Shown: positions 26 through 44,660 of the stretch, piece after piece
Layout: the number at the start of each line of letters is the position of its first letter
How positions within the stretch are numbered: position 1 is the first letter of the stretch
Sequence record: MZ502379.1
Direction: 5' to 3' (one strand)
Length of the DNA stretch: 64,000 nt
Source of the DNA: Escherichia phage vB_EcoM_Shinka
Program-made: the position numbers and the translations under genes
Notes under the pieces: model-generated
Told to the model about the DNA's origin: nothing
Seen by the model: the letters and a program-made list of their open reading frames with translations, nothing else
Database searches by the model: none

Positions 26-424
26 TTATTTCATTTTTGCGAGGCAGATTTCATTGGCTTCCCATTGAGCTTGCTTAATAATAGCTTTGGATACAGGAAC
101 CTTTTGACCATAAGTTTTTGACGTTGAGAGAACAATATATTTGTTTGCCTCATTATGCCAACCCCATGATTTTTCGCCATGAGTACCTTTAATTACGGCC
201 GACACTTCAACAGAGCATCCATCAGAACTAATCTTGGTGTCTACAATCCATTCATTTCTCTCGACAGCTTCATTTTCCGATCTCATTTTTTCTTCATACA
301 CGGCGGCCCAATCAGTTTTTGTCAAGCTTAAACTAAGAGCTTTCTCTAATTCTTTGGCAGCCTTTTGTTGTTCGGGTGTTAATGAATTATATAACTCTCG
401 CATTTCTTTATCTTCAATATTCAT
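26..424 (-). CDS. hypothetical early protein (132 aa)
   Basis: ORF with ATG at 424, strong SD (GAGGAGAA) just upstream, early-promoter-like motif further upstream; no recognisable catalytic motif. Confidence 0.5.
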   Translation of the reverse strand: MNIEDKEMRELYNSLTPEQQKAAKELEKALSLSLTKTDWAAVYEEKMRSENEAVERNEWIVDTKISSDGCSVEVSAVIKGTHGEKSWGWHNEANKYIVLSTSKTYGQKVPVSKAIIKQAQWEANEICLAKMK

Positions 425-816: not shown

Positions 817-950
817 CGTTTTGTGAAAAAATTTTTTAAAAAGTTTTAGGGAATTCTAGGGTAGGGAGGGGCAATTAAAAGATAGGATAATATATTATAA
901 AGGGTAGAAACTAAATGATGCCTAGAGAGGCCCGGAAAGGCCTAGATACC

Positions 951-978
951 AAAAAGCCCCAACCTTTTGGTCGGGGCT
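951..978 (-). terminator. rho-independent terminator hairpin (minus strand)
   Basis: minus-strand stem AGCCCCGACC/GGTTGGGGCT with 4-nt loop followed by TTTTT; immediately downstream of CDS 986..1459. Confidence 0.55.
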
Positions 979-985
979 AAGAATG

Positions 986-1459
986 TTATTTGATTTGTTT
1001 AGCAGACCAAATGCGGTCTTTAATAATTTTTTGGATGTCTTCAACATACTCAAGAGAGTGAGCATGTGGGTTATCTTTGAAACTATAAGCACGAGCTAAC
1101 TTTTGACCTTCAGTTTTGATTACTAAAAGCTCTTTAAGGATAGCTTCATATCTGGAGATAATTCCTTTAACGATATTTTTCTCTTGTGTGACTTTAGGAT
1201 CTGCTTTAGGAGCAGGTTTACCTGAAGCCTTTGCAAAAGCAGCTCCAGTAGCAACTAAACTTTTCCAAGCCATACTAACTGCATTCCCTGTAAATCCTTC
1301 GGCTTTCATATCACGAGCAAATTGGAATCGTGATTCATCGGAAGCATCTTTATAGGAATATTTACCCGCGGCAATGGCTGCTTTTGCGACAGCTTGAATT
1401 TCGGTGCTAGATGCTTCATTTAACACCGCTTCATTTAAAAATTGAGCATATGATTTCAT
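986..1459 (-). CDS. internal-protein-like protein with capsid-targeting-type N-terminus (157 aa)
   Basis: N-terminus MKSYAQFLNEA resembles the MKTYQEFIAEA-type capsid targeting sequence of T4 internal proteins; late TATAAATA promoter upstream; Ala/Lys-rich. Confidence 0.5.
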   Translation of the reverse strand: MKSYAQFLNEAVLNEASSTEIQAVAKAAIAAGKYSYKDASDESRFQFARDMKAEGFTGNAVSMAWKSLVATGAAFAKASGKPAPKADPKVTQEKNIVKGIISRYEAILKELLVIKTEGQKLARAYSFKDNPHAHSLEYVEDIQKIIKDRIWSAKQIK

Positions 1460-1495
1460 CTTATTTCCTGTTTTAATTCGTGGTTTTAATATACT

Positions 1496-1503
1496 TATTT
1501 ATA
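1496..1503 (-). promoter_or_regulatory. late promoter TATAAATA (minus strand)
   Basis: exact TATAAATA on minus strand ~35 nt upstream of ATG at 1459. Confidence 0.45.
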
Positions 1504-1505
1504 CT

Positions 1506-1533
1506 AAAAAGCCCCAACCTTTCGGTCGGGGCT
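1506..1533 (-). terminator. rho-independent terminator hairpin (minus strand), repeat of 951..978
   Basis: same stem sequence as 951..978 (one loop difference) followed by TTTTT on minus strand. Confidence 0.55.
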
Positions 1534-1584
1534 AAGCCTTGCGGCAACCTTGTCGGGGTTCCACCTGCTAAGGCAAGTGTTTGT

Positions 1585-1676
1585 ACGAAACGCCGGGATT
1601 CGAACCCGGTTATTAAGTAGTTGACGCTACTCAATATTTTTAAAAGGCCATATCTCGACCATATCCGAACGTTCCG
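1585..1676 (-). ncRNA. tRNA-like structured RNA (non-canonical; possible stable-RNA species)
   Basis: canonical T-arm (CCGGG-TTCGAAT-CCCGG) and 7-bp acceptor stem (one G-U) but a 10-bp hairpin with 6-nt loop where the anticodon arm should be; no encoded CCA. Confidence 0.35.
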
Positions 1677-1850
1677 TCAAAAACGCTACTCGGCTTATGG
1701 CAAAGATATTTCCTCGAATCGATAATTCGGTGCGCCGTTTCTGCTGTGATATAAGGGGGCATTAACAAAAACATAAAGATTTATTAATGCCAGTCCTTAA
1801 ACAGGGAACATCAGTCCGACGACTTGCCGGTAGCGACCCGGCTTCTTGTC

Positions 1851-1926
1851 TGGTCGAGGCAGTAGGGATCGAACCTACGACCCAGGACTTAGAAGGTCCT
1901 TGCTCTTCCTTCTGAGCTATGCCTCG
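1851..1926 (-). tRNA. tRNA-Arg (anticodon TCT)
   Basis: 76 nt cloverleaf built by hand: 7-bp acceptor, anticodon loop CTTCTAA, T-loop TTCGATC, CCA encoded. Confidence 0.8.
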
Positions 1927-1930
1927 TATT

Positions 1931-2005
1931 TGGCGGACGTGATAGGATTCGAACCTATAACCAATCGCTTAACAGGCGATCGCTCTGCCATTGAGCTACA
2001 CATCC
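1931..2005 (-). tRNA. tRNA-Asn (anticodon GTT)
   Basis: 75 nt; acceptor with one G-U, anticodon stem ATCGC/GCGAT, loop CTGTTAA, T-loop TTCGAAT, CCA encoded. Confidence 0.7.
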
Positions 2006-2009
2006 AAAT

Positions 2010-2096
2010 TGGTGGGGAGTGATGGAGTCGAACCACCCGAGTCGCAATGACAATGGATTTACAGTCCACACCGCTACCTCTACGGGATAACTCCCC
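2010..2096 (-). tRNA. tRNA-Tyr (anticodon GTA), type II
   Basis: 87 nt; perfect 7-bp acceptor GGGGAGT/ACTCCCC, anticodon loop CTGTAAA, long variable arm, T-loop TTCGACT, CCA encoded. Confidence 0.7.
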
Positions 2097-2105
2097 AAAT
2101 TAATT

Positions 2106-2180
2106 TGGTGGCCCTGGGTAGAATTGAACCACCATCTGGCGATTATGAGTCGCTTGCTTGAACCTTCCAGCTACAGGGCC
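2106..2180 (-). tRNA. tRNA-Ile/Met (anticodon CAT)
   Basis: 75 nt; acceptor GGCCCTG/CAGGGCC, anticodon loop CTCATAA, T-loop TTCAATT, CCA encoded; T4 tRNA-Ile uses CAU. Confidence 0.75.
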
Positions 2181-2181
2181 T

Positions 2182-2257
2182 TGGTGCTGATTGACGGAAT
2201 CGAACCGCCGACGTCCTCATTACAAGTGAGGTGCTCTACCTACTGAGCTAAATCAGC
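2182..2257 (-). tRNA. tRNA-Thr (anticodon TGT)
   Basis: 76 nt; acceptor GCTGATT/AATCAGC, anticodon loop CTTGTAA, T-loop TTCGATT, CCA encoded. Confidence 0.8.
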
Positions 2258-2262
2258 AAAAC

Positions 2263-2352
2263 TGGCGGAGGCGATAGGATTTGAACCTATGAGTCGCCGG
2301 AGCGACTGCCGGTTTTCAAGACCGGTGCATTAAACCACTCTGCCACGCCTCC
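2263..2352 (-). tRNA. tRNA-Ser (anticodon TGA), type II
   Basis: 90 nt; acceptor GGAGGCG/CGCCTCC, anticodon loop CTTGAAA, long variable hairpin AGTCGC/GCGACT, T-loop TTCAAAT, CCA encoded. Confidence 0.8.
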
Positions 2353-2354
2353 AG

Positions 2355-2428
2355 TCTCCATACAAGGATTTGAACCTTGGACCTCCTGATCCCAAATCAG
2401 GCGCTCTACCAAACTGAGCTACACGGAG
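2355..2428 (-). tRNA. tRNA-Pro (anticodon TGG)
   Basis: 74 nt; anticodon stem CCTGA/TCAGG, loop TTTGGGA, T-loop TTCAAAT; no encoded CCA; 2 nt from tRNA-Ser. Confidence 0.8.
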
Positions 2429-2438
2429 TAAATTAAAT

Positions 2439-2512
<74 letters not shown>

Positions 2513-2517
2513 AAATT

Positions 2518-2604
2518 TGGTGCGAGAAGTGGGACTCGAACCCACAAGGAAATCATTCCGCAGCATTTTAAGTGCTGTGCCTTTACCAATTTGACCATTC
2601 TCGC
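2518..2604 (-). tRNA. tRNA-Leu (anticodon TAA), type II
   Basis: 87 nt; acceptor GCGAGAA/TTCTCGC, anticodon stem CAGCA/TGCTG, loop CTTAAAA, long variable arm, T-loop TTCGAGT, CCA encoded. Confidence 0.8.
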
Positions 2605-2605
2605 G

Positions 2606-2678
2606 CTGGGAATAAAGGACTCGAACCTTTGCATCCTGGAATCAAAATCCAGTGCCTTACCAACTTGGCTAATTCCCA
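2606..2678 (-). tRNA. tRNA-Gln (anticodon TTG)
   Basis: 73 nt; acceptor TGGGAAT/ATTCCCA, anticodon stem CTGGA/TCCAG, loop TTTTGAT, T-loop TTCGAGT; 1 nt from tRNA-Leu (dimeric-precursor arrangement). Confidence 0.8.
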
Positions 2679-3709: not shown

Positions 3710-3997
3710 TTACAAAAGATTTTTAGCAATAATCTTGAGATGTGCCGCAGAAATGTGTTTAGCTTTAAACAACGCAGTTTCTTCAGCAGGAGAGATAACG
3801 ATTGTAGCACCATCCTTTTTAGCAGACCACCCATCACCTAGGTAAACAGTACCTTTGATTTCTTCGCCATCAACCAGACTAATCATTGGTTTACCTTCTC
3901 GTCCTTTATTTGCTTTAATAACTTCAGAAGTAAGAGTAGCCTCGGTAATGGTAGAAACCGGGGTAGTTGTAGAAGTAAATTCTTTGAAAGTTTTCAT
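3710..3997 (-). CDS. internal-protein-like protein (95 aa) at the T4 ipI position
   Basis: N-terminus MKTFKEF... matches the MKTxxEF capsid-targeting pattern; 95 aa; sits between the tRNA region and 57B as ipI does in T4. Confidence 0.5.
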   Translation of the reverse strand: MKTFKEFTSTTTPVSTITEATLTSEVIKANKGREGKPMISLVDGEEIKGTVYLGDGWSAKKDGATIVISPAEETALFKAKHISAAHLKIIAKNLL

Positions 3998-4027
3998 TTT
4001 ATTTTCCTAATTAATTTTGATGAGATA

Positions 4028-4057
4028 ATAGTATCACTACCTCATCAACGTGTAAAC
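4028..4057 (-). promoter_or_regulatory. T4-type early promoter
   Basis: minus-strand GTTTACA-N17-TACTAT. Confidence 0.45.
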
Positions 4058-4069
4058 AACTATGTGAAA

Positions 4070-4766
<697 letters not shown>

Positions 4767-32535: not shown

Positions 32536-32960
32536 TGCTTCTGATCCCTGAAACTCATGAATTAGTTCTCGAGAATGTCGAAGCACTTATTCCTGAAGCA
32601 CAGGGTCGCTTTGACGAATTGTCTTCTGCTTTAAATAAAGACGATATAAATACAATTGTCGAGAATATGCTTGATGATGAAACTGATTTAGCGGTTGCAT
32701 TAGCTTCTATTAATGAAAATATGCCGTTAAATGAATTTATCGTTAAACATGTTTCTGCCCGTGGTGAAATTACTCGCACTAAAGATCGCAAAACCCGCGA
32801 ACGTAATGCATTTCAAACTACCGGGTTGTCTAAAGCAAAACGTAGACAAATTGCTCGTAAAGCTACCAAAACGAAGATTGCCAATCCAGCAGGTCAATCT
32901 CGTGCTCAGCGTAAGCGTAAAAAAGCTCTTAAACGCCGTAAAGCATTAGGATTAAGCTAA
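32535..32960 (+). CDS. 68: prohead core protein gp68
   Basis: 141 aa, basic C-terminus; order. Confidence 0.8.
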
Positions 32961-33598
32961 TGAATGAACCCCAATTACTAATTGAAACTTGGGGTCAACC
33001 TGGCGAAATTATTGATGGCGTACCAATGCTTGAATCTCATGATGGAAAAGACTTAGGTTTAAAACCGGGTTTATACATCGAAGGAATATTCATGCAAGCG
33101 GAAGTCGTCAATAGAAATAAACGTCTTTATCCAAAACGTATATTAGAAAAAGCGGTAAAAGACTATATTAATGAGCAAGTTTTAACTAAACAAGCTCTCG
33201 GAGAATTAAATCATCCTCCACGCGCTAATGTTGACCCGATGCAAGCCGCTATCATTATAGAAGATATGTGGTGGAAAGGAAATGACGTATACGGACGAGC
33301 TCGTGTTATTGAAGGTGACCACGGTCCTGGAGATAAATTAGCAGCTAATATTCGTGCCGGATGGATTCCAGGAGTTTCTTCTCGTGGATTAGGTTCATTG
33401 ACTGACACAAATAAAGGTTATCGTATCGTAAACGAAGGATTCAAATTAACTGTAGGTGTTGATGCAGTATGGGGTCCAAGTGCTCCAGATGCATGGGTAA
33501 CTCCTAAGGAAATTACCGAATCACAGACGGCGGAAGCCGATACAAGTGCCGATGACGCCTATATGGCTCTCGCAGAGGCCATGAAAAAAGCGTTATAA
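32960..33598 (+). CDS. 21: prohead core protease gp21
   Basis: 212 aa; order. Confidence 0.85.
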   Translation: MNEPQLLIETWGQPGEIIDGVPMLESHDGKDLGLKPGLYIEGIFMQAEVVNRNKRLYPKRILEKAVKDYINEQVLTKQALGELNHPPRANVDPMQAAIIIEDMWWKGNDVYGRARVIEGDHGPGDKLAANIRAGWIPGVSSRGLGSLTDTNKGYRIVNEGFKLTVGVDAVWGPSAPDAWVTPKEITESQTAEADTSADDAYMALAEAMKKAL

Positions 33599-33628: not shown

Positions 33629-34438
33629 ATGCTTAAAGAACAACTGATTGCTGAAGCGCAAAAAATTGATGCTTCCGTTGCTCTTGATAGTATTTTCGAA
33701 TCAGTTAATATTTCTCCGGAAGCAAAAGAAACTTTCGGCACTGTATTCGAAGCTACCGTCAAGCAGCACGCCGTTAAATTAGCTGAATCTCATATCGCTA
33801 AAATTGCTGAAAAAGCAGAAGAAGAAGTAGAAAAAAATAAAGAAGAAGCAGAAGAAAAAGCTGAGAAGAAAATCGCTGAGCAAGCTTCTAAATTCCTTGA
33901 CCATCTTGCAAAAGAATGGCTCACTGAAAATAAATTAGCAGTAGATAAAGGTATCAAAGCCGAACTGTTTGAATCCATGCTTGGTGGATTGAAAGAGCTC
34001 TTCGTTGAACACAACGTTGTTGTTCCAGAAGAATCAGTTGATGTTGTAGCTGAAATGGAAGAAGAACTGCAAGAACATAAAGAAGAATCAGCTCGTCTGT
34101 TCGAAGAACTCAATAAGCGTGACGCATATATCAATTATGTGCAGCGTGAAGTGGCATTGAGCGAAAGTACTAAAGATCTGACTGAGTCTCAAAAAGAAAA
34201 AGTCTCTGCTCTGGTCGAAGGTATGGATTATTCAGATGCATTCTCAAGTAAATTGAGTGCAATCGTAGAAATGGTGAAGAAATCTAATAAAGATGAAAGC
34301 ACTATTACTGAGAGTATAAATACTCCTGATACTGAAGCAGCCGGACTGAATTTCGTCACTGAAGCTGTAGAAGATAAATCTGCACAAGGTGCAGAAGATA
34401 TTGTAAGTGTATATGCGAAAGTCGCATCTCGTTTCTAA
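33629..34438 (+). CDS. 22: prohead core scaffold protein gp22
   Basis: 269 aa, E/K-rich coiled coil. Confidence 0.85.
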   Translation: MLKEQLIAEAQKIDASVALDSIFESVNISPEAKETFGTVFEATVKQHAVKLAESHIAKIAEKAEEEVEKNKEEAEEKAEKKIAEQASKFLDHLAKEWLTENKLAVDKGIKAELFESMLGGLKELFVEHNVVVPEESVDVVAEMEEELQEHKEESARLFEELNKRDAYINYVQREVALSESTKDLTESQKEKVSALVEGMDYSDAFSSKLSAIVEMVKKSNKDESTITESINTPDTEAAGLNFVTEAVEDKSAQGAEDIVSVYAKVASRF

Positions 34439-44648: not shown

Positions 44649-44660
44649 TATTTATAAATA
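44649..44660. promoter_or_regulatory. divergent overlapping late promoters (genes 26 and 51)
   Basis: TATTTATAAATA contains TATAAATA on both strands. Confidence 0.5.

Follow-up and report, generated by a model that had tools for sequence, protein, structure and literature searches.

Does the short minus-strand gene at the e.8/rnaC junction of a T4-like phage encode an internal protein, packaged in the head together with the DNA, and if so, what would such a protein do after delivery to the next host? We addressed this question in a stretch of 64,000 nucleotides of Escherichia phage vB_EcoM_Shinka (MZ502379.1), referred to here in its entirety as the window, which was identified as Tequatrovirus DNA. 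Our analysis indicates that the gene probably encodes a member of an unrecognised family of T4-type internal proteins, judging from the features collected in Table 1.

Table 1. Features of the candidate gene, its cassette and related genes. Coordinates are window positions unless a locus handle is given; a slash within a peptide marks a predicted cleavage point.
Feature	Position	Strand	Basis or remark
Candidate gene	986..1459	-	157 aa + stop; PHROG 2280; predicted internal (head-packaged) protein precursor
Predicted capsid targeting sequence / propeptide	1415..1459	-	codons 1-15, MKSYAQFLNE/AVLNE/A
Small N-domain, three helices (predicted)	1220..1414	-	residues 16-80; invariant family-alignment columns + AF2
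Long antiparallel helical hairpin (predicted)	998..1198	-	residues 88-154; preceded by Pro/Lys/Ala-rich linker, residues 72-87
Shine-Dalgarno AGGA	1466..1469	-	6 nt before ATG
T4-type late promoter box TATAAATA	1496..1503	-	sequence scan
Upstream intrinsic-terminator hairpin + T-run	1505..1533 (hairpin 1510..1533)	-	-20.3 kcal/mol
Downstream intrinsic-terminator hairpin + T-run	950..978 (hairpin 955..978)	-	-19.5 kcal/mol
Direct repeat, left copy, 36 nt	946..981	.	34/36 identical to 1501..1536
Direct repeat, right copy, 36 nt	1501..1536	.	bounds 555-bp indel with left copy
rnaC	1584..1722	-	blastn vs T4 rnaC 98.6%; upstream of cassette
rnaD	1729..1846	-	blastn vs T4 rnaD 85.7%; upstream of cassette
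ipI, positive control	3710..3997	-	translation identical to T4 IPI; Pfam IPI_T4 7e-54
Early-type ip promoters	L003 7880..7960; L006 1219..1334, 1917..2010; window 3998..4075		T4 ip genes, window ipI
gp21 prohead protease	32960..33598	+	Pfam Peptidase_S77 1.5e-111
gp22 scaffold	33629..34438	+	Pfam T4_CASP 5e-90

The candidate gene and its product

The original prediction described a 157-aa product beginning MKSYAQFLNEA, in agreement with the open reading frame found at this position, which opens with an ATG and is translated to the N-terminus MKSYAQFLNEAVLNEASS; no in-frame start lies upstream of this ATG in the ORF reading of the window. The protein matches PHROG 2280, a group labelled 'unknown function' (E=7e-60). 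Comparison with the RB27 and Mosigvirus orthologs gave a dN/dS of 0.08-0.12, at a dS of about 1.4-1.7 that is near saturation, and we conclude that the gene is genuine and that purifying selection acts on it.

The AF2 model of the whole protein has a pLDDT of 75.6 and consists of an N-domain (residues 18-71), a linker and a hairpin (residues 88-154). Within the N-domain, helices at residues 18-30, 41-53 and 59-71 were modelled at pLDDT 80-90, and the invariant columns of the family alignment define the signature AGKYSYKD.SDESRF.F..DMKAEGF..N.V..AWKS. The mature protein is thus predicted by the model to be all-helical, two-domain and basic, and its computed properties (142-147 aa, about 15.5-16 kDa, pI 9.5-9.6) are akin to those of mature IPII and IPIII; before cleavage the product would have a mass of 17.3 kDa. 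The two parts of the protein evolve at different rates. Among coliphage orthologs, pN is 0.16-0.26 in the N-domain versus 0.04-0.05 in the C-terminal half, so that non-synonymous change runs 3-6 times faster in the N-domain than in the C-terminal hairpin, while in comparisons of coliphage with Klebsiella-phage members the order is reversed and the C-terminus diverges faster than the N-domain.

A probable terminator-flanked late transcription unit

Both the minus-strand late promoter and the two near-identical bracketing hairpins of the original prediction were recovered at this locus: the promoter box reads TATAAATA, and the hairpins, each with a 10-bp stem containing 7 GC pairs, a 4-nt loop and a T-run, are one loop base apart. 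The octamer TATAAATA is abundant in the window, with 25 copies against 9.1 expected and a count that was reached in 0 of 100 shuffles, and with so many copies present a single one is weak evidence alone. The box upstream of the candidate gene is credible despite this abundance because of its placement, beginning 2 nt past the upstream T-run and ending 36 nt before the candidate ATG, and because other genera share this arrangement. At the equivalent position, TATAAATA occurs in RB27 and in Jiaodavirus phiKp_22 (with a different hairpin), AATAAATA in Mosigvirus SF, and CATAAATA in Marfavirus and Winklervirus, and the order of hairpin, [T/A/C]ATAAATA, Shine-Dalgarno sequence and ATG recurs in five genera with differing hairpin sequences. 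No sigma-70-like promoter was found on the minus strand upstream of the candidate gene. Elsewhere in the window, a TATAAATA box on one strand overlaps another on the complementary strand (44649..44660).

The upstream hairpin follows the annotated 3' end of rnaC by ~50 nt, is marked as a terminator in Kha5h, and is present as a single copy in T4. It presumably terminates transcription of the tRNA/rnaD/rnaC unit and insulates the candidate gene from upstream transcription. The ipI, ipII and ipIII genes of T4 and the ipI gene of the window, which is located 2.3 kb from the candidate gene, each follow a stem-loop that contains a promoter of the early type (GTTTAC, N17, TAnTAT). Because the ip genes sit behind promoters of this type, the late-only, terminator-insulated design of the candidate cassette is distinct from theirs.

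In addition to gp21 and gp22, the window encodes 57B, 57A, gene 1, portal gp20, gp67, gp68 and gp23, and therefore the machinery for packaging and processing a tagged protein is encoded in the same DNA as the candidate gene.

Predicted capsid targeting sequence and protease sites

In IPIII, the first 10 residues are enough for incorporation into the head, also of foreign proteins, and amber-suppressor substitutions assign targeting to residues 4 and 7 and processing to residues 8 and 10; cleavage by gp21 follows L/I-x-E (PMC9026906). With Y4, F7, L8 and E10, the candidate protein has all four of the positions defined by mutagenesis for the capsid targeting sequence (CTS), and its N-terminus, MKSYAQFLNE/A, can be compared with MKTYQEFIAE/A in T4 IPII and IPIII. 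The combination of Y/F4, F7, L/I8 and E10 is expected by chance at 4e-5 per protein, or about 0.012 per 280-protein phage, and occurs once in the ORF set of the window. We also built a weight matrix from 14 annotated Ip genes of the fetched loci, all of which begin MKT(Y/F)(Q/K/N)EF, with the candidate's own family excluded. Among 564 ATG-start N-termini of the window, ipI ranked first and the candidate second (z=4.3), and the ortholog P0003 (78% identical; MKTYNEFLNES) scored 26.2, close to the 26.8 of IPI. The capsid-targeting-type N-terminus that had been proposed is borne out by the four CTS positions and by this rank, and on the strength of the sequence the resemblance is real rather than a product of chance.

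A search for the L/I-x-E protease site, suggested as a check at the outset, found the motif twice, at L8-N9-E10/A11 and as a duplicate at L13-N14-E15/A16. The second L-N-E-A site is due to a 15-nt tandem duplication at window positions 1412..1441 on the minus strand (TTTTTAAATGAAGCG / GTGTTAAATGAAGCA, 12/15 identical), and the RB27 and Mosigvirus alleles are without it. A further L-K-E site is found inside the protein at residues 108-110. Across the family, the aromatic-x-x-F motif is kept in all 13 tabulated N-termini, even at about 25% identity, and is followed by an [LIVM]-x-E site in 12 of the 13, P0017 having L-N-E-G and then M-E-V. The Marfavirus homolog, scored apart from these 13, has Ile at position 7.

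These data bear on whether the product is packaged at all. It may instead be a late accessory protein of the cytoplasm whose likeness to the tag reflects its fold, a constraint on translation initiation, or the remnant of a past recombination event involving an ip gene. The window allele departs from the MKT(Y/F)(Q/K/N)EF consensus at positions 3, 5 and 6 (S, A and Q), and both the locus and the promoter type are unlike those of classical ip genes, as a cytoplasmic role would allow. Against such a role, the targeting and cleavage positions are kept through about 75% divergence while adjacent positions vary, and the motif is found at the very N-terminus in every case, followed by L/I/M-x-E and a small residue. 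The tag is also detached from the fold in the AF2 model, where residues 4-15 (pLDDT<50) form the sole low-confidence segment. Finally, since the leader of IPIII by itself packages foreign proteins (PMC9026906), a tagged protein in a phage with gp21 and gp22 would be expected to be packaged. We therefore consider a purely cytoplasmic protein quite unlikely, and an internal protein the better reading of this N-terminus.

Homology searches

The Pfam search with the candidate protein returned sub-threshold noise only, with no match to PF11634 (IPI_T4) or GP67, and PADLOC gave no match. A sequence-profile search of the PDB with the mature protein gave nothing better than E>2, and Foldseek searches with the model gave no match in the PDB and only members of the candidate's own family in BFVD. 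An exhaustive profile search of 1.84 billion representative proteins recovered 13 members, all of them from the same family. Clear homology to a non-packaged enzyme, named by the original prediction as one of the findings that would speak against it, was thus looked for in sequence, profile and structure searches, and neither an enzyme nor any other non-packaged homolog was found by them. Taken together, the internal-protein-like reading is supported by the sequence of the tag, the protease sites and the late promoter, while the mature part of the protein is unrelated to IPI/IPI*.

A C-terminal domain swap between coliphage and Klebsiella-phage members was also considered and rejected in favor of homology over the whole length, because P0015 and P0019 bridge the two groups and P0010 gives a full-length profile match. 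We found no name for the family in the papers searched, and a look for the candidate sequence in the supplements to Silas et al. 2025, the study of ip1-10, gave no match.

Distribution, gain and loss of the cassette

A full-length homolog was detected by tblastn in 467 phage records, at one place per genome each time. Homologs of at least 90% identity are present in 365 records, and gp21-gp22 at 95% identity or above in about 505 Tequatrovirus-like records; about 70% of sequenced Tequatroviruses therefore carry the candidate gene. Orthologs at 74-80% identity occur in RB27 and Mosigvirus, and distant homologs in Jiaodavirus and Marfavirus (Klebsiella), Winklervirus (Serratia) and Yersinia phage fHe-Yen9-01, such that the family spans phages with glucosyl-hmC and with arabinosyl-type DNA hypermodifications. 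The gene is absent from T2, T4, T6 and ACG-C40, and from ValerieMcCarty03, one of the two phages (ValerieMcCarty03/04) covered by a CsCl virion proteome. Presence varies among close relatives, as it does for T4-type internal proteins, and truncated and frameshifted alleles occur, as expected for a dispensable accessory gene.

Alignment to T4 suggests how the cassette is gained or lost. In T4, the e.8 intergenic region leads to a single hairpin and then to rnaC, and the window has 555 extra bases at this point, flanked by the two hairpin copies, which presumably represent a duplicated rnaC terminator. T6 has the T4 arrangement and T2 also has a single hairpin. The flanks of the T2 hairpin are the outer flanks of the two copies in the window, which fits a precise recombinational deletion or insertion.

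Among the tblastn matches listed, the product label is 'hypothetical' or 'Phage protein' throughout. The named cluster members are likewise 'hypothetical', 'uncharacterized' or 'Phage protein' with one exception, a Klebsiella phage (Jiaodavirus) entry that was independently called 'Internal head protein' by its submitter. Its absence from T2, T4 and T6 probably explains why the family has been overlooked. Two annotation errors were seen among its members: in KpV477 (L005 2841..3231) an intact 177-aa homolog gene is split into two CDS, and in Serratia phage LC53 (L014 344..907) the CDS starts 19 codons too early and spans the CATAAATA box.

The candidate gene is located in a hyperplastic region. 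The T4 e.7 slot is occupied in the window by a 132-aa ORF (26..424, minus strand; PHROG 8232, unknown function) that is not homologous to e.7, and this replacement is a further sign of hyperplasticity. On the other side, the window carries 10 tRNAs at 1851..2678 (minus strand), including Asn, Tyr and Met and without Ile or the segB homing endonuclease; the T4 counterpart has 8 tRNAs and segB. Between rnaD and tRNA-Arg, a 351-bp ORF is present in T2 (L011 7003..7353) and ACG-C40 (L016 1175..1525), and the window and T4 are without it. Another tagged protein (MKTYQEFITEAA), also of 157 aa, is encoded directly upstream of the lysozyme gene in T2 (EcT2_00129, L011 2430..2903) and in phage fD1 (g129, L010 7786..8259). 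This is the site occupied by ipII and ipIII in T4, and the fD1 gene adjoins denV. EcT2_00129 is mislabelled 'valyl tRNA synthetase modifier'. The tagged protein has the same length as the candidate protein yet is unrelated to it.

Association with virions

Yersinia phage fD1 encodes a protein, g140, that is 98% identical to the candidate protein. In LC-MS/MS of ultracentrifuge-purified fD1 virions (dataset PXD026812), g140 was particle-associated at the strict threshold, and the canonical internal proteins g129 and g146 were flagged in the same way (PMC8309999 Table S3). These data confirm that g140 is expressed and that it co-purifies with the particles. The fD1 particle list is permissive, containing 113 of 277 proteins while missing some true virion proteins, and it includes thymidine kinase, DenV, lysozyme e, NudE, the 57A chaperone and dNMP kinase (PMC8309999). 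On account of this permissiveness the flag lifts the odds of packaging only about 2-3 fold, and the many cytoplasmic enzymes on the list count in favor of the cytoplasmic alternative considered above. Among the five major bands on the virion gel of phage HY01, one was assigned to a 'hypothetical protein' without a name (PMC5201272); HY01 carries the candidate gene (HY01_0126), and that band could be its product. The fPS-2 and RB69 papers contain no virion proteome.

The protein might also enter the prohead only transiently, as a core component like gp67 and gp68 that is cleaved and then degraded or expelled before DNA packaging and is never injected. Its late expression is that of core genes, and the additional L-K-E site in its interior could serve such a fate. 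It has no homology to gp67 or gp68, however, and that one internal gp21 site compares with 5-14 in gp68 and gp22. Peptides of the fD1 ortholog were recovered from mature particles, and T2, T4 and T6 assemble normal heads without the gene. A transient core component is thus very improbable, and a protein retained in the finished head accounts better for these observations.

Proposed role in infection

For an internal protein with these features, we propose the following sequence of events. The gene would be transcribed only late and in dependence on gp55/gp33, from its gp55-type promoter, as a monocistronic mRNA of ~0.5 kb that begins a few nt downstream of position 1496 and ends at the downstream hairpin, during the time in which proheads are built. 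MKSYAQFLNE would then act as a capsid targeting sequence by binding the gp22 scaffolding core. Cleavage by gp21 after Glu10 and/or Glu15 would convert the uncut N-terminus, SYTQFLNEAVLNEASSTEIQAVAK, to a mature N-terminus at Ala11 (AVLNEASSTEIQAVAK) or Ala16 (ASSTEIQAVAK), according to the site used, and the processed, basic helical protein would stay in the head with the DNA. From the sequence features described, we regard late expression, targeting and processing with packaging as likely. If the protein is processed and packaged, its injection with the DNA into the next host would follow almost as a matter of course. There, by direct binding, it may neutralise a first-line DNA-targeting host defence, as Ip1, Ip2 and Ip3 do with GmrSD; we offer this anti-defence role tentatively, by analogy, as a possibility somewhat short of probable.

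The nature of any such target is constrained by published work. Ip1, Ip2 and Ip3 each inhibit a distinct GmrSD type IV restriction enzyme and have only the leader in common, and a survey of ip1-10 against 15 GmrSD groups revealed no new inhibitory interactions (PMC12373910). Sensitivity to the GmrSD enzyme BrxU persists in the Durham phages EL, TB37, BGP and NR1 (PMC13390438). All four carry the candidate gene, and therefore BrxU is not its target at natural dose. Because the family is found in differently hypermodified phages, its target need not be modification-specific. We consider it doubtful that a GmrSD-family enzyme in particular is the target. A bolder version of the proposal, in which the protein is a pan-genus injected effector directed at another first-response defence or at a conserved host factor rather than at modification-dependent GmrSD, is speculative and seems improbable to us. 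If it is true, the role of T-even internal proteins would reach beyond type IV restriction, and the cassette of terminator and late promoter would be a distinct vehicle that shuffles packaged effectors between phages.

A further alternative accepts packaging and processing and contests the last, functional step only: the protein may be a DNA-associated or charge-neutralising filler of the head or a minor accessory of the core, with no role against host defences. Its pI of about 9.5, its Lys/Pro/Ala-rich linker and its long helices are compatible with such a role, as are the occurrence of the family across differing DNA modifications, the lack of new inhibition in the ip1-10 survey and the BrxU sensitivity of phages that carry the gene. 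A dispensable gene that is often lost or frameshifted, however, fits a conditional host-range factor better than a structural need, and the N-domain of the coliphage proteins changes faster than the C-terminal half. The three T4 internal proteins were themselves formerly seen as DNA-associated fillers, and all three are specific restriction inhibitors (PMC12373910). A head filler is therefore unlikely in our estimation, and we retain a role against host defences as the working proposal.

Following the 2025 assignment of all three T4 internal proteins to GmrSD inhibition, the other named Ips remain orphans. Most sequenced Tequatroviruses have a member of the family described here, as do T4-like phages that infect Klebsiella, Serratia and Yersinia, and therapeutic candidates are numerous among these phages. 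If packaged and injected, its members are candidate host-range determinants for which T2, T4 and T6 are natural knock-outs. Applications of the T4 protein-packaging system could also draw on the tag variant, in which the cleavage site is duplicated.

Comparison with known systems

The closest counterparts of the candidate protein are IPII and IPIII, which have nearly the same tag, an L/I-x-E/A site at residues 8-10 and a small, basic, non-essential mature product, and which are likewise found in a T-even genome encoding gp21 and gp22. Beyond the tag there is no sequence similarity, as seen from the single tblastn place per record and the lack of a Pfam match. The loci also differ, the candidate gene being at the e.8/rnaC junction and ipII/ipIII between denV and e, as do the controls, with a late-only promoter and flanking terminators in the former and an early promoter stem-loop in the latter. 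The known targets of Ip2 and Ip3 are the GmrSD enzymes of ECOR21 and ECOR17.

IPI/IPI* (PF11634), which inhibits the GmrSD of E. coli CT596, represents the same class of CTS-tagged, gp21-processed and injected proteins. The candidate protein is not homologous to it and has no PF11634 match, in contrast to the ipI product of the window. In IPI, a 19-residue propeptide precedes a compact 76-aa alpha/beta fold, whereas the mature candidate is predicted to be all-helical and nearly twice as long.

Ip4-Ip10 and later Ips (Repoila et al. 1994; Silas et al. 2025) are unrelated accessory proteins that share the tag alone, and they resemble the candidate family in their patchy presence among phages. 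They are encoded at the trna.4-57B hotspot, and with the candidate family there would be a third locus of ip genes, one that is regulated differently and expressed only late.

In its layout, the cassette also resembles the PeSL mobile cassettes, or 'morons', of T4-type phages reportedly described by Arbiol et al. in 2010. Both consist of a single accessory gene with its own promoter and a stem-loop, and both have short regulatory repeats that allow recombinational gain and loss. The PeSL promoter is of the early sigma-70 type, whereas the candidate gene has a late TATAAATA box and its repeat is a Rho-independent terminator.
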